Assembly: GCA_951406725.2 (NCBI GenBank)
Contig: OX597824.1
Location: 33,108,001 to 33,172,000, forward strand
Length of the DNA stretch: 64,000 bases
Reading direction: 5' to 3'
From: Octopus vulgaris
Lineage: Eukaryota
Below are positions 4,427 to 38,586 of this stretch, one piece after another. Position 1 is the first letter of the stretch; each line of letters opens with the position of its first letter. The translations under genes were made by a program, and so were the position numbers. The notes below the pieces were generated by a model. It searched no databases, was not told where the DNA came from, and saw nothing but the letters and a program-made list of their open reading frames with translations.

Positions 4427-6347
4427 GCAAGAGGTGCTGAAAAGTTACTGGTTTTGGGTAAAAGAAAATACAGGAGGACCAGTTAATAATGATTTTATGA
4501 AATATATTCCCTTCTCAGATTCACACACTTATTGCAGCAATCCTTCGCTTTTTCTAAGCCCTGTAAAATAACTCAGAAAGTTGGGCCTCCAACCAGGCCT
4601 TTCATAACATCCTTAAAGCCAGGAACTTTTTAGCACCCCCTTGTAATTTAAAATGTAACTTTCTCTTTCTCTCTTACTTGTTTCAGTCATTTGACTGCGG
4701 CAATGCTGGAGCACCGCCTTCTAGTTGAGTAAATCGACCCCAGGACTTATTCTTTGTAAGCCTAGTACTTATTCTATCAGTCTCTTTTGCTGAACCGCTA
4801 AGTTACGGGGACGTAAACACACCAGCATCGGTTGTCAAGTAATGGTGGGGGGACAAATGCAGACACACAAACATATACACACATGCATATATATACATAT
4901 ATACGACGGGCTTCTTCCAGTTTCCGTCTACCAAATCCACTCACAAGGCTTTGGTCGGCCCGAGGCTATAGTAGAAGACACTTGCCCAAGGTACCACGCA
5001 GTGGGAATGAACCCGGAACCATGTGGTTGGTAAGCAAGCTACTTACCACACAGCTGCTCCTGCGCCTATATACTTGACGTATTATAAATTACTGTAGAAA
5101 TAAAATAAATAAAGAGCCAGCTGAATGTCACAGAATCAATGAAGTTAAAGGCCTTTTCAAAATACACAGAGAACAGTTAAGTCTACCGTGTACTGGACAG
5201 TCAGCCTCAAGGTGAACAGTTTGTCTGCTGTCATAGGACTGTATTTTACTGCATGGCAAAGACACTTAATACTCTCTCAAATAGGTTGGTCTGTCTAAGT
5301 TATAAGTAGGTGCAATAGCACAGTAACAACTAACTGCCATGTACAGAGAGAACATTATAAAACTAAGCATTTCATTAGCTTGTAATGTTGGAGTCAACTT
5401 TTATGAATATAACTTGAGGAGGTATGGGTCCTTACTAGGCTGAGTCACCCTAAATAAATCTTATACAAACGAGGAGTTTTTCAGTGTCCTATGACCCCCA
5501 AAGCATTTGTGTCTCGATTCACCATCTCTTCTGACCCTTGTCAAATAATTTTGTTGTTATTTCAGATAATTACTTTTCATTTGAAATAAGCATTATTTTT
5601 TTTAAAGGTAATTCTCCTATAAACTACTTCTAGGAGCAGTAATTGTTTTTCATTTTTTGTTTGTTTTTTGATTGGTAATAAAAATCATGCTCATCATCAT
5701 CATCATTGTCATCATTACCTTCACTATTGCCACCACCACCACCACCACCTCCACCATCACTAACAACAACACCACCATCATCATCATCACCACCACTACC
5801 ACCATTGCCCCCACCATCCCACTCTGATATCTGTACAATTGGACAGATATGCTATATAGAACCTCTCTCCGCATACTTCAATATTATATTACACTTGGTT
5901 GTGGGAGACAGCAAATCTCTTCTGTAACTTAATCTTTCTCTTTTAAAGCTACTTTTCAGCAATTTACCTTCACAATGAATCCCATTTGCCAATTAATACC
6001 TTGTACATTTTTTGTACTTGGTTTCAAACGTTAGACTGTGGCCACGTTGGGGCATCACCTTGAATAATTGTTAATCAAATGAATTGACCCTGGTTTTTCA
6101 TTTAAAAAAAAATTGACCCTGATTTTTCATTTTTGTTGCCAAACTATTAAGTAATGGGAACATAAGCACACCAACACCAGCTGTCAAGCAGTGTGTGCAT
6201 GTGTGTGTGTGGGGGGGGGGGGGACAAACACAGACACAAAAATATGCATGCATAGATATATGTGTGTGTGTATATGTATACATATATTACATATATATAA
6301 AATATACATACACTTATAGATATATGTATTTATATATATATATATAT

Positions 6348-6382
<35 letters not shown>

Positions 6383-6672
6383 CATATATACATATATATG
6401 TATGTATACATACATACATATTTATATGTATGTATGTATGTATGTATGTATTTGTGTGTCTGTGTTTGCACCCTCTTATTCCCCCCCACCATCACTTGAC
6501 AACAGATGTTGGTGTGCTTACATCTCCGTAACTTAGCAGTTTGGCAAAAGAGACCTATAGAATAAGTACTAGACTTACAAAGAATAAGTCCTGGGGTTGA
6601 TTTGTTTGACTAAAGGTAGTGATCCAGCATGGCCTCAGTCAAATGACTGACACAAGTAAAAGAGTAAAAGAG

Positions 6673-6721
<49 letters not shown>

Positions 6722-7346
6722 TATATATATATATATACTAGCAGCTAAGCTCGGTTTCACCCAGTCATTTTGGATGATGTGGTTGTAAAACCTGTTCTGT
6801 ATAAACATTTGACTTGTTTGGGCACACTTACATTAAAAAACAATTTTAGGATGACTTTTTTCTGTCAAAATGCTAAAAATAATTGACCAACAAAAAATAA
6901 AAGAACCAAGATTCAACCAAATCAAAATATAAACCCAAATACTAAGCAAACAAAGTTAAACTATCCCACTTCCATTTGTGTGCACACACATAAAACACAT
7001 ACACACACACATTCACATACTCCCCTTTTACATACACACCCATATATTCACACAGAGTTGAAACGCTGTTTGATTTATTTTTTCAGAGTACAATTTTCAT
7101 CATCTCACTACCAAGTATGACATCACCCCTTCCTTCCTTATTCATCTATCACCCTTTCCATTCTCATTCATAAACACAAGAGTATTATTATAGTAGATTA
7201 TCTCAGTAACAATGGGAGCTATGAAAAAGTACAAAGCTTAGCATCACCACTGGATCATTCTACACATCTGTGTAATTTTTCATGCAATTCCACCCAGCCA
7301 TTTGACTGTGAGTCCCAAGAAAAGAAAGAATCGCCCGTGTCAAATT

Positions 7347-7628
<282 letters not shown>

Positions 7629-7855
7629 GGCGAGCTGGTAGAAACGTTAGCACACCAGGCGAAATTCGTACCCATATTTCATCTGTCGTTACGTTCCGAG
7701 TTCAAATTCCGCCGAGGTCGACTTTGCCTTTCATCCTTTCGGGGTCGATAAATTAAGTACCAGTTACGCACTGGGGTCGATGTTATCGACTTAATCCCTT
7801 TGTCTGTCCTTGTTTGTCCCCTCTGTGTTTAGCCCCTTGTGGGTAGTAAAGAAAT
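7629..7855 (+). mobile_element. SINE family B (Nin/Deu-like central domain), representative copy
   Basis: ggcgagctggcagaa head, gagttcaaattcc B-box, ccgaggtcgactttgcctttcatcctttcggggtcgataaa core. Copies at ~1187-1405(-), 14748-14915, 27566-27790, 28664-28890, 30704-30925, 32040-32270, 50952-51690, 58312-58541. Confidence 0.8.
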
Positions 7856-8053
7856 ATATATATTTATATATACATATGAAAAAATACCGTTAAAAATGAA
7901 GGGAAATTACTCTGTTATAACTCTGCTTTGCCTGCGTACTTATACATCGCTCGCATTTTTCGTCATAAAAATTATATAAAAATACATAAAAAATATATAA
8001 AAATATATAAAAATATATAAAATCTTCTTGGGACATAACACAGAAAGCATGTT

Positions 8054-9698
8054 CTATCCGTTTTCTTTAGGGGACCAAAAACGTAACAGAAATTTAGTCA
8101 CATGTGGGCATGATCCGAAAAGTTCTGTCCTTGTATTTAGACATGTGGTAGGGTCTAAGCTGCTTTTCCAGATAAGCCATCTCTCCATGTCGCATAAACC
8201 GCACCTTCCGCTGCCGTTAGTATAGGGCTTACATCTGGCCAAAATCTTCCATTGTATGTTATAATCGACACCTTTATCTCTTAAAGACCAAATATGATTG
8301 GATAATTGTGTCGCTTTTCTTTTGTTCCAGTGCCTAAAGCTCAAAGTGTGGTTATTGAACCTGGCCTTGAAATTACCCTCTGTCAGGCCCACGTATTTCT
8401 TCGTCAAAACGGTGTCTTTAGTGGTTATAGAGTTTACGGTAGCCTCATATATGATGGTCTTGGACATGCAAGCTCCATTTAGCGGGCACAATTCTTTATT
8501 CCTGCATGAACAGCTGTTTTCTTCTTGTGTTTTTTGTATGTTATGATTGATTATGTTTTTAAAATTGGTAGTTGAACTAAAACTAATTTTTAAATTGTGT
8601 CTATTGAAGAGTTTCCTATAAGCATGGTTAACTGGAAAATGTCTATCTATCAGTGCTAGGAAATATTTACCTATATTGAAGGCCACCTCGGGTGAGTAAG
8701 GGGGCGTAAACCAGATGACCTTCCTATTTCTATTATTCCTTTTCTTTATTGTTGGGCTGGTGATAGGTGTATATTTTATTTTTTCGCTAAAACCACTATC
8801 TTTTAAAGCTTTATTATAAACTGGGGCAACGCTATTGAAGATGTCCTCATTAGATGAGAGGCTAGAAATCCTCTTACTAATATTTTTAACTAAATTTTTG
8901 AATACTATAGGGGGATGGCATGAACCTACATTAATATAACTTAGTCTATCATTGGGCTTCCTATAAGGCTTATAAATATTATTATTAAGATCTAAGGAAA
9001 CGTCTAAGAAATTGACAACCGTCAGGTTAGTGTCTATAGTTATACTAAGTCCGAAGTGTTTCATTAACTGGATAATATCCTTCCTAAAACGATCTTGTGC
9101 TGGTCCATTTGTATTAGCTGTTAAGGCGAGGGCATCATCTTTGTAGATGGCGAAATGTACGTTAGGGAATGTCTTACTGAAGGTATCTAGGAGAAAGAGT
9201 CCAATTAGATCACAGATGCCTGCCCCATCATATGAACCCATGCTCACATCGAAAGCGCCCTCCGTGTCGGTGTTTTTTACCCACTTTGCATTCTCACTGA
9301 AAAGTAATGTCTTTCTAGCATGGAAGATTATATCCTTATCATTGGTACTAATTTCTATGAAGTCACTAGCGAAGATTAGGGCTTTATCTAGCAGTTCTTT
9401 AGAGATAGAGGCATAAAAATCAACAATATCGAATTGTGTAAACCTCGCTTTTTTCTTATTCTTAATAGCTTTAAACCAGTCTACGACTTCTATACTATTG
9501 GACCATTGCACTAGCCTAGTATCGGTCTTAATTTTCGTATTTATTTTATCTAAAATTTCTTTGCTAATAATCCCTAGTTCTGACTTGGCTGGGTTGATAA
9601 GCCTACATTTAGGATTGGAAAGGAAGTTTTCTTTGTGGTCTTTAATAGTAATAAAGGCCTCTTTTTGGGGGAGGGTTTCTATTTTTTTATCTAATTTT
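8054..9698 (-). CDS. PLE polyprotein, 5'-truncated but in frame: RT (FDIVDFY, SMGSYDGA, YKDD, VNFLDV) plus C-terminal GIY-YIG endonuclease (IIYEA...KYVGLT...FKARFNNH)
   Basis: 556-aa ORF in the track, of which the first ~9 residues come from the junction fragment. Cys motifs CSCRNKELCPLNGAC, CGLC and CPH surround the endonuclease, which I recall as typical of the Hydra group of C-terminal-EN PLEs. Confidence 0.9.
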
Positions 9699-9757
9699 AT
9701 CTTGACTACCGAGTAATGTAACATATTGTATAGATAAATTTCCTCTATTTACATAAT

Positions 9758-11365
9758 AGAGGCCTTTATTACTATTAAAGACCACAAAGAAAACTTCCTT
9801 TCCAATCCTAAATGTAGGCTTATCAACCCAGCCAAGTCAGAACTAGGGATTATTAGCAAAGAAATTTTAGATAAAATAAATACGAAAATTAAGACCGATA
9901 CTAGGCTAGTGCAATGGTCCAATAGTATAGAAGTCGTAGACTGGTTTAAAGCTATTAAGAATAAGAAAAAGCGAGGTTTACACAATTCGATATTGTTGAT
10001 TTTTATGCCTCTATCTCTAAAGAACTGCTAGATAAAGCCCTAATCTTCGCTAGTGACTTCATAGAAATTAGTACCAATGATAAGGATATAATCTTCCATG
10101 CTAGAAAGACATTACTTTTCAGTGAGAATGCAAAGTGGGTAAAAAACACCGACACGGAGGGCGCTTTCGATGTGAGCATGGGTTCATATGATGGGGCAGG
10201 CATCTGTGATCTAATTGGACTCTTTCTCCTAGATACCTTCAGTAAGACATTCCCTAACGTACATTTCGCCATCTACAAAGATGATGCCCTCGCCTTAACA
10301 GCTAATACAAATGGACCAGCACAAGATCGTTTTAGGAAGGATATTATCCAGTTAATGAAACACTTCGGACTTAGTATAACTATAGACACTAACCTGACGG
10401 TTGTCAATTTCTTAGACGTTTCCTTAGATCTTAATAATAATATTTATAAGCCTTATAGGAAGCCCAATGATAGACTAAGTTATATTAATGTAGGTTCATG
10501 CCATCCCCCTATAGTATTCAAAAATTTAGTTAAAAATATTAGTAAGAGGATTTCTAGCCTCTCATCTAATGAGGACATCTTCAATAGCGTTGCCCCAGTT
10601 TATAATAAAGCTTTAAAAGATAGTGGTTTTAGCGAAAAAATAAAATATACACCTATCACCAGCCCAACAATAAAGAAAAGGAATAATAGAAATAGGAAGG
10701 TCATCTGGTTTACGCCCCCTTACTCACCCGAGGTGGCCTTCAATATAGGTAAATATTTCCTAGCACTGATAGATAGACATTTTCCAGTTAACCATGCTTA
10801 TAGGAAACTCTTCAATAGACACAATTTAAAAATTAGTTTTAGTTCAACTACCAATTTTAAAAACATAATCAATCATAACATACAAAAAACACAAGAAGAA
10901 AACAGCTGTTCATGCAGGAATAAAGAATTGTGCCCGCTAAATGGAGCTTGCATGTCCAAGACCATCATATATGAGGCTACCGTAAACTCTATAACCACTA
11001 AAGACACCGTTTTGACGAAGAAATACGTGGGCCTGACAGAGGGTAATTTCAAGGCCAGGTTCAATAACCACACTTTGAGCTTTAGGCACTGGAACAAAAG
11101 AAAAGCGACACAATTATCCAATCATATTTGGTCTTTAAGAGATAAAGGTGTCGATTATAACATACAATGGAAGATTTTGGCCAGATGTAAGCCCTATACT
11201 AACGGCAGCGGAAGGTGCGGTTTATGCGACATGGAGAGATGGCTTATCTGGAAAAGCAGCTTAGACCCTACCACATGTCTAAATACAAGGACAGAACTTT
11301 TCGGATCATGCCCACATGTGACTAAATTTCTGTTACGTTTTTGGTCCCCTAAAGAAAACGGATAG
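9758..11365 (+). pseudogene. Second PLE RT/GIY-YIG copy, frameshifted near its 5' end
   Basis: Same sequence as the left arm except A5 instead of A6 at ~9966-9970. The downstream 397-aa ORF 10172-11365 matches the left protein. Confidence 0.88.
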
Positions 11366-11560
11366 AACATGCTTTCTGTGTTATGTCCCAAGAAGATTTT
11401 ATATATTTTTATATATTTTTATATATTTTTTATGTATTTTTATATAATTTTTATGACGAAAAATGCGAGCGATGTATAAGTACGCAGGCAAAGCAGAGTT
11501 ATAACAGAGTAATTTCCCTTCATTTTTAACGGTATTTTTTCATAACGTTTTCAAATAGCC

Positions 11561-11623
11561 AGATAACCGAAGAGATGGTGTTGTGGATTTCCACTTCGGC
11601 ATCTGAAACTCAGAGTTTTATCT
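11561..11623 (+). ncRNA. Type I hammerhead ribozyme in the PLE pseudo-LTR (variant core)
   Basis: Helix I AGAUAA/UUAUCU, core CCGAAGA, helix II GAUG/CAUC with inner GUGGA/UCCAC, extra U, GAA, helix III ACUC-A-GAGU. Predicted cleavage after GUU at 11617. Confidence 0.75.
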
Positions 11624-11871
11624 TGACTACCGAGTAATGTAACATATTGTATAGATAAATTTCCTCTATTTACATAATATTGAGGTCTCTTTCTTTCTTT
11701 TGTTATCTTACCGTTTTATCAATATATATACATATATATGTATATATATACATACATACAAACATACATACATGCATACATACATACATACATACATACA
11801 TACATACATACATACATACATACATACACATATGTATATACACATACATATATATATATATGTGCATATAT

Positions 11872-11913
<42 letters not shown>

Positions 11914-11920
11914 TTATATA

Positions 11921-12788
11921 CAGGATGCAATGAATAAACTGTCGTCTAAATTATGTAAAAATGAAAATAACACTGACTTCTCATTTGACAAAAATTATAT
12001 AAAAGTGTCTTGGAATACTAAAGAGCAAATTTAGTCAATAAAATCGCCATTGTCTTCAACCATGGCCTCCAGATGACTTTGGAATCTTCTGCAAATCTTC
12101 TGGATGGTTTCCTTTATTTAAGTTGGTGAATGATGCCATAATACATGTCTTCAGTTCATCTTTGGTTTTTTAAGGAGTTTTGTTGATCTCTCACTAAACT
12201 GCACCCAACAAATAATAATCAAGGGGATTGTAGTCTGGGGAGTTGTTAGGTGGCCAGATGTTAGGGGTGATGTGGTCGCAGAAATTCTCTGAGATCCACG
12301 ACTGGGTTCTCCTGCTTGTGTGGCATGGTACAGAGTCCTGTTGCCAGACATAGTGTCTTCCGGCAGCCACCCTCTTGACCCAGGGAAGCACTACCACCTC
12401 CAGGTACTTGATGTAGGTCTCTGAGGCTGTGTGGGAAGATGAACGGAGGCATAATGTTGCCATCACTAGTGATCTCTCCAAACATCATGATGTTGACTGG
12501 GTGTTTGATTTTTATCACTCTCGGTACATGTCCTCAGATTGCACTGTCCTCAGATTGACACCCAAACACTCTGAAATGTTCAGATTCGAGCTTTCAGTGT
12601 GAATGCCAAGTAGTACAGCATATTGTTTCAAAATTTCTGGCAGAGTGAATTGTGTCATGGTGTTGTTTTTCTCACAGATAGTGCCCAATTGACCCTACTA
12701 TACTAAGTAGTCAACAAAATCAAAAGTAAATAATGCACATGCGCAAAATTAAAACCGTAAGATGGTGTCAATTTACCCATTGCACCCT
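11921..12788 (-). mobile_element. Internally deleted Tc1/mariner (DD37D-like) element
   Basis: Fragments YVWQQDSVPCH...WPPNNSPDYNPLDY. Imperfect TIRs caggatgcaatgaataaactg / caatttacccattgcaccct. Confidence 0.8.
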
Positions 12789-15246
12789 TCTTTTATTTTT
12801 TATTTGTTTCAATCATTTGACTATGGCCATGCTGGAGCACTGGCTTGAAGGGTTTTATCAGTCTCTTTTTGCTGAACCACTAATTTATGGGGATGTAAAC
12901 ACACCAACACTGGTTGTGAAGTGGTGATGAGGAGACAAACACAGACACAAAGACACACATACATAAATATATACTAACACACACACACACACATATTCAT
13001 ATACATACATGGCTCAGTGGGTAGGGTGTTACACTCACATATCACAAGATCGTGATTTCAATTCCTTCACTGGGTGGTGTTTTGTGTTCTTGAGCAAGAC
13101 ACTTCATCGTGCATTGCTCTGCGATCACTTCAACACCTAATACGTGGTACACAGTGCACCTGCTCAGACAACGTTGATTCGATGGAGAGAGTGAGCTAAT
13201 GTGTGGCAAGAACATTTGATCCCTACAAACAAATCATTTGTACAGGTTATTCATCAAAAGCTGAACACTAATACATCATCATCGTATGTATACGATGGGC
13301 TTCTTTCAGTTTCCATCTACAATATCTACTCGCAAGGCTTTGATTGTCTTGAGGCTATAGTAGAAGACACTTGCCCCAAGGTAGGTGCCACACAGTGGGA
13401 CTGAACCCAGAACAATGTGGTTGGGAAGCAGACTTCTCCCACACAGTCATCGCTGTGCCTTGCTGTGCTTTCTTTCACTCTGAGACTTCCCATCCCTTTT
13501 GATTGCATATCCAAACCATGCTGTTGCTGTCTTCGCTGTCTTGATGAGCTTTTTTATATATTTAATGCCTACACACTGTCTCAAGGGACTTGACATTTCA
13601 AATGATGTTATATTATTTGCACACTAAACTCAGCTTATTCCTCCTCCTCCTCCTACCTCACACCTCCTCTGCCTCCTCCGCCTCCTCCTCCTCTCCTCTT
13701 CCTCTCCCCCTCCTCCTCCGCCTCCTCCTCTGCCGCCTCTGCCTCTTCCAGCGTTTTCTTCTTCTTCTTCAGCAATTACTTCTCGTGTTTCTCTACTGGG
13801 AAGTATAAAAAAAAAAGAGTAAAAAATCCTGATCAACATTTTCAATGAGTATCATCATCATCACCACATTCTCTTCCCACTCCTCCCCTCCTTGCCCATT
13901 CCTTGTTCCCCTCCTTGCCCACTCCTTTCACCTCCCCTTCCCTCTCTCTCCTTTCACCTCCCCTCAGAGTGGAAGGCAGATTGTAAGATACCTGTGTATG
14001 TACAGCTATGCTACGCCACATGACAGTGAAACATGGGCTATGACTGCAGAGGACATGTGAAGGCTTGAAAGAAATGAAGCTAGCACTTGATGGGTAATGT
14101 CAGTGTGCACATATGAGAGAGTGTAAATGGTTTAAGAGGACAACTGGGTATAACAGGCATCAGATGTTGTGTGTAAGAGAGAAAAACTGCACTGGTTAGG
14201 TCATGTGATGCATATGGATAAGGACAGCTGCTGATTTCTAACTGTGGGGTGAACCTATGGAAAAAAGAAAATAATAATGAAATTATTGTATACAGTGCTC
14301 AGGTGCACCACAACTTGTCAAAAGTGCATATAAAATTTATACAGTAATGTACAAATGTCTGGGAGGTGAACAGTGTATGAGTCAGATACATGTTTGCGTG
14401 TGTATGGAGGGGAAAAAAAAATCAGGTGCAGTACTGGCGAATCTCAGGAAGCATGGAAGTTTTGAAGGATGCAGTGCTCTGACAACTAACAACTGATGCT
14501 AGCAGTGTGTTCCATGCTTCAGCAACTCTTAAAGGGGTAGACCCAGGAAAACATGGGACAAAGTGGTGAGAAAAGATCTTCAAATGCTGGGCCTCACTGA
14601 GGAAATGACAAGAGGCCAGGAGTTGTGGTAATTTGCTGTGCTTGAGAAGAAAACATCAAGCTAAGTATTATCATGATCATCCATACATACAGACATGCCC
14701 TTTGCAGGTGCTGGTGCCATGCAAAATGCACTTGTGCTGGTGCCATGTCGTTACGTTCTGAGTTCAAATTCCGCCGAGGTCGACTTTGCCTTTCATCCTT
14801 TCGGGGTCAATAAATTAAGTACCAGTTATGCACTGGGGTCGATGTAATCGATTTAATACCTTTGACTGTCCTTGTTTGTCCCCTCTATGTTTAGCCCCTT
14901 GTGGGTAATAAAGAAATATATATATGAATGTACCTATGCTGGTGGAACATGAAAGGTACCCAGCACACTCTGTAAAGTGTTTGGTGCTAGGAAGGGCATC
15001 CAACCATAGAAAACCATGCCAAAATAGACAATTGGAGTCTGGACAGCTCTTGTCAAACTGTCCAACCCGTGCCAGCATAGAAAATGGATGTTAAATGACG
15101 ATGATGATGAGGAGGAGGATGATATGTGGAACCATTAATCCCAACACATTTCTGTTGCTCTCTGTTTTTCTTCTCTCCCTCCATTTTTTATTAGTCTATT
15201 TGAGTATTTCAACTCATCAAAATGTAATCTCTGTATTGCCCTTTTT

Positions 15247-15353
15247 CATGCCCTGAAGATTTTCCACCCAAGATATTTTGAAAAGCAAACTTATATATTT
15301 ATATATGCTCTGTTATTTAAATTGGATGTGAAATGAAACAATTGTTGGCAATG
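15247..15353 (+). ncRNA. Hammerhead ribozyme with extended helix II
   Basis: UGCC | CUGAAGA | UUUUCCAC..~60 nt..GUGAAA(U) | GAA | ACAAUUGU | U | GGCA. Followed by a PLE-type tail ending at TA. Confidence 0.65.
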
Positions 15354-15906
15354 GTGATAATTAATTGATAAATTAATTTATATCCATTGAATCTCTCCAT
15401 TTTCAAACTTGATAATATTTGATAGTTTATGATATTTTATAATATATTCATTGAAGGAATATCCCTTCAAAATACAATATATTAAACCAGTGCATCTTGG
15501 ATTAAAATAACCCTATAAGAGGTCTAATTATCCTCATAGTCACTATATGTATATACTCTTTTACTTGTTTCAGTCATGTGACTGTGGCCATGCTGGAGCA
15601 CTGCCTTTAGTCGATCAAATCGACCCCAGGACTTATTCTTTGTAAGCCTAGTACTTATTTTATCGGTCTCTTTTTTGCTAAACCGCTAAGTTATGGGGAC
15701 ATAAACACACCGGCATGCAAACATGCACATACATATATATATATATATATATATGATGGGCTTCTTTCAGTTTCCGTCTACCAAATCCACTCACAAGGCT
15801 TTGGTCGGCGTGAGGCTACAGTAGAAGACACTTACCCAATGTGCCACGCAGTGAGACTGCACCCAGAACCATGTGGTTCGTAAGCAAGCTACTGACCACT
15901 CCTACA

Positions 15907-16030
<124 letters not shown>

Positions 16031-16040
16031 CATATATACA

Positions 16041-16113
<73 letters not shown>

Positions 16114-16852
16114 GCAAATAAGAAAATGGAGGAACAAAATAGTTGGTTCATCAACTTTAGGACATTAGAAATGTTAGCTTATTTATTTATCAGTTTAATA
16201 AATAAATAAGTTAACATTTTTAATGTCCTAAAGTTGATGAACCAACTATTGTGTTCCCCCATTTTCTTATTTGCAAAATAAATTAATGGTAAAATATCTC
16301 TTTACCTCCACCCATTCAATACACTTGGTAAGTTAATTGCAATAAAAACACTTGTGTATTAATAATTGGGTATTATACCAACAGTATACTGGATAGATAT
16401 TATCGCTTAGTGGGTTGGACACACAACCTCTAACTTTTTTGGAGTTAAATATATATATATATATATATAATCAATCATCATCATCATCGTTTAACGTCCG
16501 CTTTCCATGCTAGCATGGGTTGGACGATTTTGACTGAGGGCTGGCGAACCAGACGGCCGCACTAGGCTCCAGTCTTGATCTGGCAGAGTTTCTACAGCTG
16601 GATGCCCTTCCTAACGCCAACCACTCAGAGTGTGTAGTGGGTGCTTTTTACGTGCCACTGGCACGGGGCCAGTCAGGTGATACTGGCAATGACCTCACTC
16701 GAATCTTTTTACACATGCCACCGGCACACACACACACATATATATATATATATAGTTAATCCAAACAAGAAAGCACAAAAAAACACAACAACGCGAGGAC
16801 GTGGAACAAATATAGTATTATTGGACGCTCAGGAAAGAAGGAAAGAAGGAGG

Positions 16853-16887
16853 GTTTAACGTTTCGAGTGGAGCTCTTCGTCGAAAAC
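16853..16887 (-). ncRNA. Minimal hammerhead-like motif (decayed core) in a PLE tail fragment spanning ~16755-16960
   Basis: Minus strand GUUU UCGACGA A GAG-CUCCA-CUC GAA ACGU U AAAC. Confidence 0.5.
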
Positions 16888-18129
16888 ATAGGAGAAGGAA
16901 ATATCCAGAGAAGGGAAGACAGAGGAAAAAAAATCGCCAATGGTACACACGCGGTCACATACATATATATACATATGTATATATGTATGTATGTATGTAT
17001 GTAAGCCTGTTGATTTCCAAAGTAATCTGATTTTTACATTTTAATTTTTGTATTTTTACAATATTATTAATACACATAACAATATTACAAGTATTTTTAG
17101 GTTTTACGTTTAATAGGAGCAGCAAAGTAAGATAGACAATTTTTCAAATAAAATTAATATATTGAACTTGTTATTAATGATCTTAATGTAAATGTTTATA
17201 TGGGAGTAATACTAACAAACAGTTAATCTGCTTCATGTTTCTCAATTGAAGAGAAATGACTGAGTTTTTTTATTAAATTATTATGATTTGATGAGTGCAG
17301 TGATATGGTTTCAAGAAAAGTTTAATTTTAATCAATATTCTTCTTCTTCTTCTCCTCCTCCTTGTTGTTGCTACTGCTGTTTGTTTGTTTGTTTGTTTGT
17401 TGAGCGAAGCAGTCTTCGTCCCAGAGCTCACAAGATCACACCTCTGTAGTGGGAGAAGTCCGAAACGTGGTCCTTTGCTATTCATAAGACCCGCAGAAGA
17501 GAAAGCAGGTCACCCCCACCCCTGACACCGAGAGCATCAATGGATGGATGAATGCGCATCCAGGCTCAGCAGTTGCGCAGGAAGTTTGGGACAAGAAACA
17601 GGAAGAAAGAGTGAGAGAAAGTTGGAGCGAAAGAGTACAACAGGGGTCACCACCACCCCCTGCCGGAGCCGCATAGAGCTTTAGGTGTTTTCGCTCAATA
17701 AACACACACAACTTCTGCTCTGGGAATTGAAACCGTGATCCTCCGACCGCGAGTCTGCTGCCCTAACCACTGGGCCATTACACCTCCACTGCTGCTGCTG
17801 TTACTGTTGTTGTTGTCATCATCATTGCTGTTGTAGTTGTCATCCTTTCAGAACAAGTTTAAACTTCTCGATAAATATTCTTTTCTCTTACTCTTCTTCT
17901 AACTTCACTTGAATACTCTTTTTGACTGTGGCCATGCTGGAGCACCGCCTTTAGTCGAGCAAATCGAGCCCAAGATTTATTCTTTGTAAGCCTGGTACTT
18001 ATTCTATCGGTCTCTTTTGCCGAAGCGCTAAGTTATGGAGGCGTAAACACACCAGCATCGGTTGTCAAGTGATGTTGGGGGACAAGCACAGACACACAAA
18101 CATATACACATACATACATACATATATGT

Positions 18130-18237
<108 letters not shown>

Positions 18238-19317
18238 GACGGGCTTCTTTCAGTTTCTGTCTACCAAATCCACTCACAAGGCTTTGGTCAGCCCGAAGCT
18301 ATAGTAGACGACACTTGCCCAAGGTGCCACGCAGTGGGACTGAACCCGGAACCATGTGGTTGGTAAGCAAGCTACTTACCACACAACCACTCCTACAGCT
18401 AATGAGAACAGTTGCATCATGAAGTGCAAATCACTTAAAGTGGGGAGAAGTTGTGAAAGAAGGTGATTCAGGAAGGTATAGGATGAAGTACTAAAAACTG
18501 ATCTCAAAATGCTGAATCTTATGAAGGAGATGACAGAGGGCAAAGGTATGTGATTTTACTGCTGTACTTGAGAAGACCTGCCCACCACAATAGAATCAAG
18601 ATCCTAAAACTAAGATGCCACATAAAAAGCATTGGTGTGGGTGCTGGTGCCACGAAAATGGCACTGGTGCTCATGCCACTTAAAACGCACTGGTGATGGT
18701 GTCATGTAAAAAGCAGCCAGTAGAGTGGTTTGCATTATGAAGAGCATCCAGCTGTAAAAACCAAGCCAAAACAGACTATGGAACCTGGTGTGGCGCCTGG
18801 CCTTGCCAGTTTCTGACAAGCTGTTCAACCCATGCCAGTATGGAAAATGGACATTGGATGCTGATGATGATGATGATGATGTTGTCTTTGTCAAAAATTG
18901 CTTCAGGTTTTTGGTTGTTTTTTACTTTGATCAAGTGCATGACCAGTAATGAAATATTTTAGTTCCTTACTGTTAATTAGTCTGATGATAAGTAAGTTCG
19001 AATATGTGATGTTAAAAATATTTTGGTGGAGCAAAAACCAGTTGAAGAATATTTCCAAATGCAAATATGAAGTGCAAAAGCAGAATTCTACTCTACAGCA
19101 TCAACTGCACTAGCCCTTACTAACACCAAAAAGGAAGAAGCATGAAAGTATTATTAAGAGGGATTGTTGAATGAGGAGAATGCATAGGAGACAGAAACTG
19201 TATCCTATAAGGACCCAACAGAGGGACCAGCCATTCAAGTTGGCACCAAAATTAAAGAAGGCGGGTGGTCCTTTAGGAATAGTTGCTGAGATGCTTAATA
19301 TATATAAATATATATAA

Positions 19318-19373
<56 letters not shown>

Positions 19374-19450
19374 ATATATATGTATATATACGTGTATATA
19401 TATATATATGTGTGTGTGTATGTGTGTATATATGTATATATATATGTATA

Positions 19451-19548
<98 letters not shown>

Positions 19549-19989
19549 CATCATCATCATCATCGTTTAGCGTCCGCTTTCCATGCTATCATGGGTTGGA
19601 CGGTTCAACTGGGGTCTGGGAAGCCAGAAGGCTGCACCAGGCCCAGTCTGATCTGGCAGTGTTTCTACGGCTGGATGCCCTTCCTAACACAAGCCACTCC
19701 GTGAGTGTAGTGGGTGCTTTTTACGTGCCAGACGAGGCTGGCAAACGGCCATGATCAGATGGTGCTTTTTACATTCCACCGGCACGAGGGCCAGGCGAGG
19801 CTGGCAACGGCCACGATCGGATGGTGCTTTTTGCGTGCCACTGGTACGGGTATCTCAACTACAATTTCCATTTGATTTTCATTTTGATGTTGATGTTAAT
19901 GTACTTGACTCAATAGGTCTCCTCAAGCACAGCGGGTCACCCTATGATCCAAGGTTAGCACAGCAAGTTGATCTACGAGCCATGAACTC

Positions 19990-20400
19990 ACTTCATTCAT
20001 TGGGTCTTTGCAGTCACAGCATATCTCCAGAGGTTTTGGTGTTTCGTCATAGCCTCTGTGAGGCCCAATGTTCGAAGGTCATGCTTGACCACCTCATCCC
20101 ATGTCTCCCTGAGTCTACCTCTACCCCTGATTCCTTCAACAGTTTGGGAATGGCACTTCTTCACACATCTCTCCTCATTCATCCTAAGTACATGACCATA
20201 CCAACGCAAACGTCTCTCCTGCACACCACATCTGATGCTTCTTATGTTCAACATTTCTCTCAGGGGGCTTACACTCTGTCGTGCATGCACACTGACATTG
20301 CATATCCAGCGGATCATGCTAGCTTCATTTCTTTCGAGCCTATGCATGTCCCCCGCAGTCTCAGCCCATGTTTCACTGCCGTGAAGCACAGTACCTCAGC
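19990..20400 (-). pseudogene. RTE-clade LINE ORF2 C-terminal fragment
   Basis: LHGSETWA...ERRLRWYGHVLRM...GRGR.R.TW. Related pieces at ~13970-14660 (+) and ~18400-18580 (+). Confidence 0.85.
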
Positions 20401-27227: not shown

Positions 27228-28928
27228 TGTGTCTTTGTATCTGTGTTTGTCTCCCCATCACCACTTGACAGCCAGTGTTGGTGTGCTTACATCTCTGTAA
27301 CTTAGCAGTTCATCAAAAATAACCAATAGAACAAATACTAAGCTTAATAAAAAAGACCGGGGATAGATTTGTATTTATGTATGATGGGCTTCTTTCAGTT
27401 TCCATCTACCAACTCAAAAAGGCTTTCGTCAGTCCGAGGCTATAGTAGATGACACTTGTCAAAGGTGCCACACTGTGAAACTGAACCCAGAACCATGTGG
27501 TTAGGAAGCAAGATTCTTACAATACTGCCACTCCTGTGCCTATGTATGTATGTATATATATCCATGAGCTGGCAGAAACATTAGCATGCCAGGCGAAATG
27601 CTTTGCGGTATTTCGTCCGCCGCTGCGTTCTGAGTTCATATTCCGCTGAGGTCAACTTTGCCTTTCATCCTTTCGGGGTCGATAAATTAAGTACCAGTTA
27701 CGCACTGGGGTTGATGTAATCGACTTAATCCCTTGGTCTGTCCTTGTTTGTCTCCTCTGTGTTTAGCCCCTTGTGGGTAGTAAAGAAATATATATATAAA
27801 GATAAGTCCTAGGGTTGATTTGTTCAACTTAAAAACCTTTCAAAGTGGTGCTCCAGCATGGCTACAGTCAAATGACTGAAACAAGTAAATATATATATAT
27901 ATATTCTAGCAAAAACTGTCTGACGAACGGGAACGTGAAACTCAGAGTAACAGGTTTTGTTGAATTTTCTGCTGCTTTAAATAAAGTATACATATATATA
28001 TATATATATATGGAAAAAAAAGTCAAGATAGAAAATGCTAAAATAATTTTATAAAAAACATTTCAGTATCGGTTTCAGTCATTGAGACTTTTTCAACTGT
28101 AACAATTAAACAATTAAATTTAGAAAACTTAAAAGTAAAGTTTTTTTAAAAGAATATTTGTATAGTGTTCAAATACAAGTGGCCTTTTCCTTGTTTCTGC
28201 CTGTCTCTGTCTCTCTTGTTTAATCTTGTGGGTTCCAGGTCAGGTCATTGTGAATTCTTGGTAGGGAAGAGGAAGAAAAAGAAGAAGGAGGAGGAGGAGA
28301 AGGAGAAGAAGAAAAATGTGGGAGTGCCATGACAGTAGTATTTTGGCACTCCCACATTCTTCTTCTCCTTCTCCTCCTCCTTCTTTTTCTTCTTCATCTT
28401 CTTCCCTACCAAGAATTCACAATGACCTGGAACCCGCAAGAGTAAACAAGAGAGACAGAGACAGGCAGAAACAAGGAAATTGCCACTTGTATTTGAACAC
28501 TATACAAATATTCTTTTAAAAAAAACTTTTCTTTTAATTTTTCTAAATTTAATTGTTTAATTATTACAGTTGAAAAAGTCTCAATGACTGAAACCGGTAC
28601 TGAAATGTTTTTTTATAAAATTATTTTAGCATTTTCTATCTTGACTTTTCTTCCATATATATCCGGCGAGCTGGCAGAACTGTTAGCACGCCGGGCGAAA
28701 TGCGTAGCAGTATTTTGTCTGTCGTTATGTTCTGAGTTCAAATTCTGCCGAGGTTGACTTTGCCTTTCATCCTTTCGGGGTCGATAAATTAAGTACCAGT
28801 TATGCAGTGGGGTCGATATAATCGACTTAATCCCTTTGTCTGTCCTTGTTTGTCCCCTCTATGTTTAGCCCCTTGTGGGTAATAAAGAAACATATATCAA
28901 CTCATGTGTTCCTTTTCATCCTTCTACA

Positions 28929-28967
<39 letters not shown>

Positions 28968-31484
28968 GCACACAAACACACACGCACACACACATATATA
29001 TATAATTGACTTTATTCTCACCATCCCTCCAAGAGTGTGGCTTGGTTCTTGGGCTATAAGCATTTAATCTTTTACTATTTCATACAGGATGTTCCATATA
29101 TTGAAGAAATTCCTGACTGGATTAAGAATGGAACTATAACTTTACAAGGTCAAGCTGAAACAGGACAGAATGGGTAAGTAAATGAGATGATGCACCATTT
29201 ATTTCAGTTTTAAAGACTTTAAAGATTTCTCTTTCTCACAGGCGCAGGAGTGGCTGTGTGGTAAGTAGCTTGCTAACCAACCACAAGGTTCCGGGTTCAG
29301 TCCCACTGCGTGGCACCTTGGGCAAGTGTCTTCTGCTATAGCCCCGGGCCGACCAATGCCTTGTGAGTAGATTTGGTAGACGGAAACTGAAAGAAGCCTG
29401 TCGTATATATGTATATATATATAAGTGTGTGTGTATATGTTTGTGTGTCTGTGTTTGTCCCCCAAGCATTGCTTGACAACCGATGCTGGTGTGTTTACGT
29501 CCCCGTCACTTAGCGGTTCGGCAAAAGACCCGATAGAATAAGTACTGGGCTTACAAAGAATAAGCCCCGGGGTCGATTTGCTCGACTAAAGGCGGTGCTC
29601 CAGCATGGCCGCAGTCAAATTACTGAAACAAGTAAAAGAGTAAAAGAGTATGTCAATTCAAGCTGACTCGTACAATTTCCAGTCTAAATTTACTGCCTTG
29701 TATTTAACTGATATTAAATTTAAATTAGCTTTGCTTGAAACAGAAATAAAGTAATATATAATATTTTTTAAACTCCATAAAAGCTTTCTAAGGTTGAAAC
29801 AATGCAAAATGAAATACAAAAGTGAAGGGGGCACAGGAGTGGCTGTGTGGTAAGTAGCTTGTTTACAAACCACATGGTTCCAGGTTCACTCCCACTGTGT
29901 GGCACCTTGGGCAAGTGTCTTCTACTATAGCCTCGGGCCGACCAAAGCCTTGTGAATGGATTTGGTAGACGGAAACTGAAAGAAGCCCGTTGTATATATA
30001 TATATATATATATATATATGCGTGTGTGTGTTTGTGTGTCTGTGTTTGTCCCCCTAGCATTGCTTGACAACCGATGCTGCTGTGTTTATGTCCCCGTTAC
30101 TTAGCGGTTCGGCAAAAGGGACCGATAGAATAAGTACTGGGCTTCCAAAGTATAAGTCCCGGGGTCGAGTTGCTCGATTAAAGGTGGTGCTCCAGCATGG
30201 CCGCAGTCAAATGACTGAAACAAGTAAAAGAGTAAAAGAGAGAGAGAGAGTAAAGGGAACAGCAGCTGAAGCCTTTTCTTGTATTTCTTTGATATTTTTG
30301 GATTATATATATAATAAACTTATTGTATACAGTGCTCAGGTGCACTACAACTCATCAGATAAGGTAGTCAAAAATGCTTATATAGTACATAGAATAACTC
30401 ACAGAAAGTGAACAGTAAATGAATTGTTTAAAAAACGAAGGTGGAAGGTATCAGGTGTACTTTTGGCAAATTGCAGGAAGCACGGAAGTTTTGAAGGATG
30501 TAGCGTCCTGACATAACAACTGGTAGCAATTCTGGGCACGAAAGAATGTTTCCAAAAGTCACGGGTTCTGTGTTGTTTTTTTCAATTTTGTAAGCATCTC
30601 CATGAGTGTTAGACAAATGGAATTCAAAAAGGTACTGAAGATTGTTGTTGGAAAGCTGGAGGATAATTTTATGGGTGTCTGCCATGTCAGTTGCCAGAGG
30701 AAGGCGGTGAGCTGGCAGAATCGTTAGCACACTGGATGGGATGCTTAGCAGTATTTCGTCTACCATTACGTTCTGAGTTCAAATTCCGCCGAGGTCGACT
30801 TTGCCTATCATCCTTTCGGAGGTCGATAAATTAAGTACCAGTTACGCACTGGGATCGATGTAATTGACTTAATGTCCTTGTTTCTCCTCTCTATGTTTAG
30901 CTCCTTGTGGGCAATAAAGAAATAAAATGTTGGAGCTTTAATGTGTCCATGCCCAGGGAAGCAAGTGTTCATAGGGACCCGTTCATTAGGACACATGAAG
31001 AAATAAGAGACGGTCAAACCTTTTTTTTTTATTGCTACTATTGCCATTTCTCCATGGAAGAAACAACTTCAGTTGATACTAATATTCTAAATCAATTTTC
31101 AGTATCCTCGCTTGGCAATATTTCACCTTAATGTCCTCTTATTTATTTTTTTGTCTTTTAAGGTTTTCTATAAACTTATCAACCGAACCTTGTTTTGAGC
31201 CACTACCAGACACAGCCCTTCATATCAATGTACGATCACAAAACAAAATTATTGTGTTTAACTATTACAAGAGTGGAAAATGGGGCATGGAAGAAAGAGT
31301 CCATGACAAATTTCTCTTGCGGCAAGATTTCTCCTTTGAACTTACGATAATGATAGCTAAATCTGAATTTATGGTTAGTAAACTTTTTCAAAATTTGTTA
31401 TCTTTATTTGTGCAAATGTTTATCTAGGTTGTGAGAATAGTAGAATACAGAGGTGTAAATAACCTGAGAATGTGTGTGTGTGTA

Positions 31485-34550: not shown

Positions 34551-35538
34551 ATATATGTGAGCTGCAGTGGCGACCCGTGTGGGCATTTGTGTAGTACTTG
34601 ATGCCAAAGTTTGGTACCAGTCCTGCCAGTATTTTCTATATGTAAATTATTACATATCTCTCCTGCCTGCACTCCAGGGAGTAGAGACTTAGTGCCTTCA
34701 TCTGCTGGACTCTGGTGATCTTTTTGTATAGTGACGCTGAATTGCCCCGAGTTCTGCTGGTGACCACAACTGAGAGCAATAGTCTAGGTGGCTCAGAACA
34801 AATGTCTTCCATAGAGTCAACATGACTTTTTGATCCCTCGTTCTGAATGTCCTCAGTATCCACCTTGCCAGTTGTTTGCACTTTGCTGTCAACTTGACAA
34901 TGTGCATATGAAATGATGCATCACTACACATGCTGACTGTTTGTGGTTCTGGGATTGCAGTACCTCCAGGTCCTGTGTATGCCAGTTGGGAGGCACTTGT
35001 GTCCTTGTAGCGCAGTACTTGAAATTTTTTAGCATTGAACCGCGTGTTATTTTGCTCTGCCCACTTGTATATAGCATTTAGGTCATTCTGCAGGCTTATG
35101 ACATCATCAGGATTCTTTATTGCCTGAGATAGTTTTTTGTCTTCAGCGTAGCTAGTGACAATGGCTGTCCCAGTGACCGTGGGCATGTCCAGAATGGCTA
35201 CTATGAACAATTGTGGCCCCAGGACAGTTCCTTGTGGAACACTGCTAAATAGTTGCATTTCCCTAGTGACATCTAAATGCATCCTGGTGTCATGCAAATG
35301 GCACCTGTGCCAGTGGCATGTAAAAACACCCAGTACACTCTTGGAGGGGTCGGCATTAGGAAGGGCATCCAGCCATAGAGAACCAGGCCAAATCAGACTG
35401 GAGCCTGGTGTTAGCCCAGTCAAACTGTCCAATCCATGCCAGCACGGACAACAGACGTTAAATGTTGATGATGATGATATTATACACACACACACGTATA
35501 AATATATTACATATAATATAATTATATATATGTGTGTG

Positions 35539-35596
<58 letters not shown>

Positions 35597-38586
35597 ATAT
35601 TACATGTAAATATATTGTGTGTGTGTGTTTATATATATATGTATATGTATGTATGTATATATATATATGTTATACATATAACATATTATATATTATATAC
35701 AGGGTGTGTAAGGTATTTGAGGACATACCTTTTTTGGGTCATTGCTGCAGTTTTTGCTAACTCTGTATAATCTTTGTTTCTGAAAATAATAATGGCAGAC
35801 CCTCGGCTTACTCAAGAAATGAAGAGGCATACTGCTATTGTGGCTATAAAGGCTGAGCATTGTGATTTAGAAATATCTCGATTTTTAAAAATGTCCTCTT
35901 CTTTCATCTACAAAGTTTGTAAGGAGCTAGAGACTGAAGATGGAAATGTATCACCAATATCAAAACATAAAAAGCATTCTAAACACTCTGAAATCATCAG
36001 AACGCCTGAATTAATCCAGCAAGTTCAACAAACTATTGATTACAATCCCAGAAAGATTTCCATGTGTCAGAAGGAACAGTCGGAAATGTTGTCCACGAAG
36101 ATATCAGATATAAGTCTTATATGACGAGGAAAGGTTAATTTGTCAGAAAATGCAAAAGAAAACCACTATATCAGATCTAAAAGGTTCTTAAACAAACTGA
36201 AAAATCCAGCAGAAGAAGATTTAATTTGGTGTTTCTCAAACAAGAAAAACTTCGACCAAGATCAAAAAGTTAAAAGAAATGACAGATGGTTATGTGCAGA
36301 CCCTTCTGAAGTTCCAAGTGTTAAGTATACAAAATTTCCTGCAACTGTCATAATTTTAGGGGTTGTCAGCTATGAAGGACATGTAATGCCTCCTTACTTC
36401 TTTCCACAAGGCCTTAGAGTTAACTCTGTCATATACATTGAGGTCCTGGAAATAACTGTTAATCTCTGGATAGACAGTGTATGCAATGGAAGGCCATATG
36501 TGTTTCAGTAAGACTCCACACTATCATATATGTCTCTAGTAAGACAGGAATGGATGGCTGAAAATTTTCATGATCATATAACCCCTAACATTTGGCCTCC
36601 TAATTCCCCTGATCTCAATCCATTGGACTATTACATGTAGTACATTGTTGAGAGAGAGGTCAATGAACATGCCCGTAACACCAAAGATTCTTTGAAAGCT
36701 GCTATAGTCAGAGTAATGTCCAAAATGAACCAAGACCACCTGATTTGAGCATGTAGATGATTTAGATCTTGTATAGAAGCAGTTGTTGAAGCTGAAGGTG
36801 GCTTTATTGAATAACATTATAGAAAAGGTTTATTTTTATCCTCATAGCATTTTTTGATAAAGTTTTTATCTGTTATTATGTATGTTTTTTTTTATAAACA
36901 TAAATCTGTCCTCAAATATCTTACACACCCTGTATATATTACATATAAATATATCGTATGTGTGTACAAATACACACACAGCTATTTTTATATACTGTTT
37001 CCAGCTACCAAATTCTACTCAATGACAATGGGCAATCTGAGGTTACAGTGTAACCTTTTGCTAAAAGGGTCATGTCATTGCAAAGTGACCATGTCATTGC
37101 AAAATTACCCTCTTAATTACACAGATATGCTTCCACCTATATATAGCAATTTTCAAAAATGTAATTAAATTGGCATCTTCTGTCATTTTTTCTGCCATTA
37201 TTTCAAAATACTTAGTGGCATTTTGTCTGTCTTTATATTCCAATTTCAAATTCTACCAAGGTGGACTTTACCTGTCATCCTTTTGGGGGGGTCAATGAAA
37301 TAAGTATCTGTTGTGCACTAGGGTCGATGTAAACAACTAGCCCCTTCAAGGGATATCTTTTGACATAGTAGGTTGTCGTAAAAGATAAGAACGATCAATG
37401 ATGTTTTCACTGTTAAATTTATATTATTAAAAGACACAGGTATGGCTTTGTGGGTTGTCCAAAGCCTTGTGAATAGATTTGGTAGACGGAAACTGAAAAG
37501 AAGCCCATTGTGTGTGTGTGTATGTGTGTGTATGTGTGCATGTGTGTTCTTTGTGTCTCTGTTCAGTTGTCCTCCACCACAACTAGACAACTGGTACTGG
37601 TGTGTTTACATCTCTGTAACTTATCGGTTCTGCAAAAGAAACTGACAGAAAAAGCACCAGGCTTTAAAAAACAAGTACTACGGTCAATACATACAACTAG
37701 AAATTCGCCTTCAAGGCAGTGCCCCAGCATGGCCATAGTCCAATGACTGAAACAAGTAAAAGATAAAAATACAAGATAGAAGATAAATGAATTAATAGTT
37801 TCTTTTTTTTCTTCTCTTTCAGATTTTCTTCCATAACGTCTATCATTTAAGTTTGCCTCACAGAATGGATTATAATAGTGCAAAGTTTCTTGTCATTAGA
37901 GGTTCTGTTCAAATGCAACAAGTTCGAATTGATGGTTCTGTAAGTACTGATGAAGCTCTCATTATTACAATAGTTTTATATCTACTTCATGAAGTGCATG
38001 GCTTAGTGTTTACGGTATTCAGCTCATGATCGTAAGGTGGTGAGTTCAATTTCTGGCAACACGCTGTGTCCTCAAGCAAGACACTTTATTTCACACTGTT
38101 CCAGTCCTCTCACCTAACAAAAATAAATTGTACCTGTATTTCCGAAGAACCAGCCTTGTCACACTCTATGTCATACTGAATCCCTCTGAGAACTATGTCG
38201 AGAGTACACATGTCTGTGGAGTTCTCAGCCACATGCATGTTAATTTTGTGAGCAGGCTGTTCCATTGATCAGATCAACTGGGGCCCTCATTATCATAACC
38301 AGTATATCTACTACAGAAGCTGGGGATCTCTTTTAGATGTGAAAATCATTTAAAGCTGATTGTTGATATTTTGTCCCTTACTTTGTGATTCATCAGTAGT
38401 GCTTCGATGGAACAGCTAGATCCCCTTTGTTAGTATATATAAGTGTACTTTTCATGCTGCTTTAAGGGTTTTCACTCTTATTTCTTGCAATATAGGTGCT
38501 CCCAGCATCCTCAGTTACAATTAGCGATGATTGTCGTATATATATATATATATATATATACGACAATCATCGCTAATTGTAACTGA

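Follow-up and report, generated by a model that had tools for sequence, protein, structure and literature searches.

Organization of the locus

The window, by which we mean the whole stretch of 64,000 nucleotides of Octopus vulgaris DNA that was analyzed, harbors at positions 7875 to 11724 two inverted arms which, judged from their sequence, are an ordinary head-to-head, 5'-truncated insertion of a young Penelope-like element (PLE) of the Hydra clade. In what follows, +1 is window position 11618, the first base 3' of the predicted hammerhead cut, and unit positions are counted from +1 along a full natural unit, which was cut from the tandem array L061 of the G000 genome and served as the reference for the anatomy. 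The features are as follows:

7875..9697, minus strand: inverted arm, unit 695-2506, with 5'-truncated ORF and 3' UTR (repeat alignment against the L061 unit)
8054..9694, minus strand: 5'-truncated ORF of 546 aa for reverse transcriptase (RT) and GIY-YIG endonuclease (EN), with CxCX5C, CxxC and CxH (ORF and motifs, domain search)
9695..9697, no strand: TTT microhomology between the end of the inverted ORF and the T4 run with the predicted cut (alignment)
9695..9758, plus strand: 64-nt duplicate of -2..+62 at the predicted cut, comprising tail / 5' UTR start (alignment)
9758..11724, plus strand: direct arm, unit 729 to +107 (alignment)
11561..11623, plus strand: variant type I hammerhead, predicted to cut at 11617/11618 (sequence, fold, sister subfamily, and the Hydra table in the PMC8557442 supplement, as far as consulted)
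11618..11724, plus strand: long-form tail, +1..+107 (alignment)
11725..11800, no strand: right target flank, (TA)n-rich (sequence)

Both arms carry a 5'-truncated ORF, and positions 7875-9665 are an inverted copy of 9755-11544 with 99.89% identity over 1,791 nt, the two differing by one mismatch and one one-base indel, because of which the ORF frame of the direct arm is shifted near 9965. The outer end of the inverted arm lies 74 nt short of the cut and holds neither ribozyme nor tail, and a TA-rich flank is likewise found left of 7875. The spacer between the arms is the segment -2..+62, and the identity of 9695-9758 with 11616-11679, from which the original prediction started, was confirmed as exact over 64 nt (E 1e-27). 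This match is far beyond chance, but not so, taken alone, the nearness of its start to the predicted cut.

The bases T9695-T9697 belong equally to the antisense strand of the inverted ORF (to unit 695) and to the T4 run, and because of this 3-nt microhomology the start of the duplicate floats over -2..+2; the interval does contain the cut, as had been claimed, but it is wider than the 2-nt ambiguity originally allowed. An 8-nt TTTTATCT repeat spans the same junction. At the right junction the tail ends at +62 and the ORF picks up at unit 729 with 1 base in common. The GAGG microhomology proposed for this jump had to be given up, as the GAGG of the tail lies 2 nt further on, the likeness is gapped and imperfect with an exact overlap of 1 nt, and it is not a clean crossover since such a crossover would keep a TT that is absent at the right junction. 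Likewise, the 3' tail does not end at 11679 but extends to 11724 (+107). An intron reading of the +62/729 jump was rejected, its ends being devoid of GT..AG. Inverted arms ending at unit 693-698 occur at no fewer than three loci, i.e., at least at window 9695-9697, L036 and L213 (G000:C1:185993037), which may mark a place in the ORF where truncation is frequent. Read on its opposite strand, the 64-nt piece stays open in the frame of the inverted ORF (8054-9748, minus strand), to which it adds 18 unrelated codons, likely by chance.

The near-identity of the arms might suggest an assembly or sequencing chimera, an explanation that we consider extremely improbable given that one mismatch and one indel distinguish the arms, that their outer ends differ, and that the genome contains many further inverted pairs in which a long and a short tail are regularly combined.

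Identity of the element

The Hydra clade of C-terminal EN+ PLEs (Craig et al., 2021, PMC8557442; definition in section 11) comprises elements shorter than 3 kb with a single ORF, specific motifs and (TA)n targets. The natural unit of the octopus element measures 2,579 bp and encodes one ORF, RT followed by a C-terminal GIY-YIG EN, although the match to the latter domain is weak (E 0.015, under the Pfam cut-off). In the L061 unit the N-terminal frame contains the RWK and DKT motifs, which read KRMRWKAFF and FSDKTKN, and the linker and EN motifs CxCX5C, CxxC and CxH are present as CSCRNKELC, CGLC and CPH; the preference for (TA)n insertion, the tandem and inverted arrangement and the tails were also found. 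In common with the clade as described in PMC8557442 are therefore size, single ORF and motifs, (TA)n targets, partial tandems, inverted truncated arms and tails, together with a hammerhead in the pLTR laid out as in Hydra-1_aJap, whereas the CCGAAGA core sets the young octopus subfamily apart. Three probes of 15-19 nt from this family had no match in the consulted part of the PMC8557442 supplement. By these marks the element would be new to a known clade, and its inverted arrangement was already known.

Consecutive units at L061 are spaced by 2,585, 2,579 and 2,580 bp. At L061/L062 (G000:C1:57207500-57224000) and L100-L104 (G000:C3), 4-5 nearly identical full units follow one another head to tail, and these arrays are in turn inverted. 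A metagenome scan for relatives reduced 239 candidate stretches to four, one of which (L341) is a full-length Hydra-like relative on a metagenome contig, with partial-tandem pLTRs, a canonical hammerhead, a tail ending in (TA)n and a protein sharing 46% identity with the window element over 544 columns. The window also contains dispersed SINE-like families (D11-D17; 7618-7860, 14724-14920, 27552-27880, 28654-28980, 50941-51640 and others), the element being inserted in the TA-rich end of one such copy, and a fragment at 34698-35669 (minus strand) that, from its motif, we take to resemble a CR1/RTE-type LINE reverse transcriptase.

The predicted hammerhead

The predicted ribozyme consists of stem I (AGATAA/TTATCT), the core CCGAAGA, stem II (GATG/CATC), an unpaired T, GAAA, a palindromic stem III of 3 bp, and the triplet GUU; three stems thus surround the core next to an NUH triplet, as in type I hammerheads. 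The constrained fold has -17.5 kcal/mol vs. -18.1 for the free fold, and -47.2 for the self-dimer, in which the predicted pairing runs through the palindromic stem III. A hammerhead at 11561-11623 with a predicted cut at 11617/11618 had been proposed originally, and a hammerhead-like fold is indeed found there: the same layout recurs in the sister subfamily, in L341 and in the published Hydra-1_aJap, which has an identical layout and cut in the consulted table of the PMC8557442 supplement. Of the 76 matches that an Rfam search of 5000-20000 returned at E<=1, none was a hammerhead.

The young subfamily departs from the canonical CUGANGA core, the 178 fetched copies reading CCGAAGA (163), CCGATGA (11) and CTGAAGA (1). 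The canonical CTGAAGA occupies the same place in the older sister subfamily (among 100 of 213 matches listed) and, read by eye, in L341; a motif script called no hammerhead on the four metagenome relatives. Changes at U4 slow hammerheads. As it expanded, the young subfamily may also have lost the canonical core. The variant type I hammerheads of metazoan PLEs share with ours a short, palindromic, dimer-suited stem III, and low activity would be expected of the window variant too, the differences being an unpaired base before GAAA and the U4-to-C core in the octopus (Cervera and de la Peña, 2014, PMC4209133, in the sections consulted).

5' ends across the family

A family of about 2,500 near-identical arms permits a base-level comparison between the cut of a ribozyme and the 5' ends of the copies. 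Exact-pattern searches of the G000 genome yielded 2,486 copies of +1..+22, in 34 of which G was absent at both -3 and -5; 16 of these 34 proved to be true junctions (13 of the 30 fetched by script, 3 of the remaining 4 by eye). With a filter sensitivity that we estimate at about two-thirds, arms starting within -2..+1 amount to approximately 1% of the total. There are 152 arms that extend further into the 5' UTR; of the first 30 of these, taken unselected, 24 cross the cut, so that full-length copies do not generally begin there, and the tandem units of 2,579-2,585 bp run seamlessly across it. After filtering, 32 of the 152 were classed as broken, and the ends of the 30 that were mapped spread evenly from +93 to -70, with one at +1. 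A pile-up just 3' of the cut that had appeared among full-unit arms vanished on this filtered set.

Filtered counts from a single anchor (+13..+31) were 192 for -18..+13, 373 for -57..+13 and 867 for -85..+13, or roughly 6, 5 and 14 per base, with filters that differ slightly between ranges and with a subfamily variant making up about 12 of the 100 rows listed for the -85..+13 set. The 5' ends are hence densest at -58..-85 (window 11533-11560), upstream of the ribozyme and at about three times the density round the cut. This zone could correspond to transcription starts or, by analogy with Drosophila virilis Penelope, for which such a site is reported (PMC4209133, in part), to a 3' splice site immediately ahead of stem I.

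R2 elements with 5' HDV-like ribozymes (PMC6765202, as far as consulted) are the model for the original reading, in which cleavage would define the template's 5' end; about 99% of the octopus arms, unlike R2, read through the ribozyme. Although the ambiguity interval of the window junction contains the cut and +1 is the top local position, we regard that reading as highly improbable, and the 5' end of the RNA template is not set by cleavage, because only about 1% of arms start at the cut, 24 of 30 full-unit arms cross it as the tandem arrays do, and ends are densest upstream. Since about 99% of the arms read through the hammerhead, uncut RNA is likely the normal template. Contigs of four runs, guessed to be RNA, contained no joints, and such contigs cannot show RNA ends. 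We favor, with a probability of roughly 0.55, a read-through family in which uncut RNA would be the normal template and in which self-cleavage, if any, would likely leave behind no more than a few rare arms that start at the cut. Correspondingly, the map of 5' breakpoints that had been suggested displays no general peak at the cut, but it does reveal a surplus at +1 involving less than 1% of the arms.

A small surplus of starts at +1

The 192 rows of -18..+13 were analyzed by script (168) or classed by eye from the listing alone (24); none of the latter was at +1, and the signal at this position is therefore diluted. The scripted rows included 39 indels or internal deletions and 129 true junctions, with 16 of them at +1 (13 loci), compared to 3 at -2, 1 at -1, 3 at +2 and 2 at +3; other peaks were at +11 (16), -12 (10) and -8 (8). 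The surplus at +1 is small and sharp, and it rests on 13 loci.

Twelve of the 81 clean inverted junction arms start at +1 vs. 2.6-3.8 expected under nulls with and without fitted microhomology weights, which are our own and approximate and handle both arms of any other palindrome as if they were independent. With every +1 palindrome entered a single time, the figure is 9 of 78 (P 0.001-0.01), or 0.03-0.32 when multiplied by 31 positions, the position having been named in advance. For the T4 run overall the enrichment is not significant (16 of 81 vs. 10.5-11.5 expected, P 0.05-0.10). A microhomology-aware mixture test ranked +1 best of the 31 positions (LRT 12.5; next +11, 5.8) and assigned to it a fraction of 0.15-0.20 of local junctions. 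Three blunt perfect palindromes occur among the 81, all centered on the cut and with different flanks and short-arm ends; blunt palindromes were also seen by eye elsewhere, at -66 and -58. Downstream sequence was seen for 13 of the 16 arms at +1, and all but L056 and L154 are tail-only. In the older sister subfamily, whose copies are older and more diverged, 93 rows read by eye gave no clear start at +1, whereas 2 started at -1, 6 at -2 and, between +3 and +10, about 2 at each base, although with its canonical CTGAAGA core it should cleave at least as well.

These arms and blunt palindromes at +1 may be the first trace left in vivo by a PLE hammerhead that cleaves, in a rare and abortive manner, with about 1% of templates cut, an interpretation that we place just short of even odds. 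In the consulted part of the open literature we found no mapping of genomic 5' junctions of any PLE to its hammerhead cut. The chief alternative, tentative but serious, is that no footprint exists and that all junctions, the one in the window included, derive from ordinary truncation and microhomology joining, the surplus at +1 being due to chance, to re-mobilized copies of one palindrome or to RT pausing at the hammerhead fold. In its favor are the TTT microhomology and the 8-nt TTTTATCT repeat at the window junction, the sister subfamily devoid of a +1 surplus, the peaks at -12/-5, -16/-8 and +11 that track microhomologies, the C that replaces core U4 in 163 of 178 copies of the young subfamily, and, for the Poseidon element PAc, RNA-seq in which the consulted sections of PMC11167929 report no reads ending at the cut. 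Against this, +1 remains the top position once microhomology is modeled, 9 of the 40 arms with 0-1 nt of microhomology lie at +1 vs. 1.5 expected, neither the flanks nor the ends of the short arms are the same in the three blunt palindromes, and RT pausing would be expected at the entry of stem I (+6) rather than at +1.

The window junction itself falls outside the sharp +1 class; it is not decisive alone and cannot by itself show ribozyme activity. That it is a product of cleavage seems unlikely, while its being a run-off product would be somewhat favored if the +1 surplus is real and the mixture model holds. The idea of a fossil of self-cleavage thus retains modest support from the family (LRT 12.5, three blunt palindromes), but not from the sister subfamily, where the signal is not repeated, nor from the junction that inspired it. 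Fold-back junctions with 5-6 nt of microhomology recur at the palindromic stem III (-12/-5; -16/-8), among others at L173, L184, L273, L304 and L308.

Tails, priming and possible role of the ribozyme

Arms of the family end at either of two tail sites, about +37-43 or about +107-110, and the inverted loci L067-L080 (G000:C1), picked for their wide spacing among the matches listed (100 of 2,486), all have one long and one short tail (14 of 14), the expected outcome if the two arms were primed at different RT start sites; at the window locus the inverted arm has no short tail. A similar picture is described for Poseidon PAc of the green anole (Frangieh et al., 2024, PMC11167929, in the sections consulted), in which reverse transcription begins at two tail sites on both strands, hammerhead mutants still inserted, uncut RNA was the main substrate, and no RNA ended at the hammerhead cut in RNA-seq. 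PAc shares with the octopus family the two tail ends 3' of the hammerhead, the AT-rich targets and, as we read our data, uncut RNA as main template. It belongs, however, to another clade, its ORF starts inside the hammerhead rather than about 210 nt 3' of the cut, and the absence of RNA ends at its cut contrasts with the small genomic surplus at +1 found here.

Insertion may accordingly start with an endonuclease cut in a (TA)n target, both DNA ends then serving as primers for reverse transcription (twin priming), one at each tail site (about +107 and about +37), and the two cDNAs would be linked in head-to-head orientation, either bluntly or through short microhomologies. At the window locus a jump of the long cDNA from unit 729 to +62 is likely, and this cDNA would then have joined the other arm at TTT, either after running off a ribozyme-cut end or by merely using TTT. 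Where cleavage occurs, two cDNAs would run off the cut end and be joined into a tail-only, dead insertion. As most arms at +1 are tail-only, cleavage would mainly abort transposition and not define the 5' end of the element, and the ribozyme, if this is true, would act to restrain transposition instead of producing that end. The family data thus point to uncut RNA as the likely rule in vivo, with a small, testable surplus at the cut. The tail is also found alone, as four tandem 89-bp copies at G000:C30:5433129-5433446.
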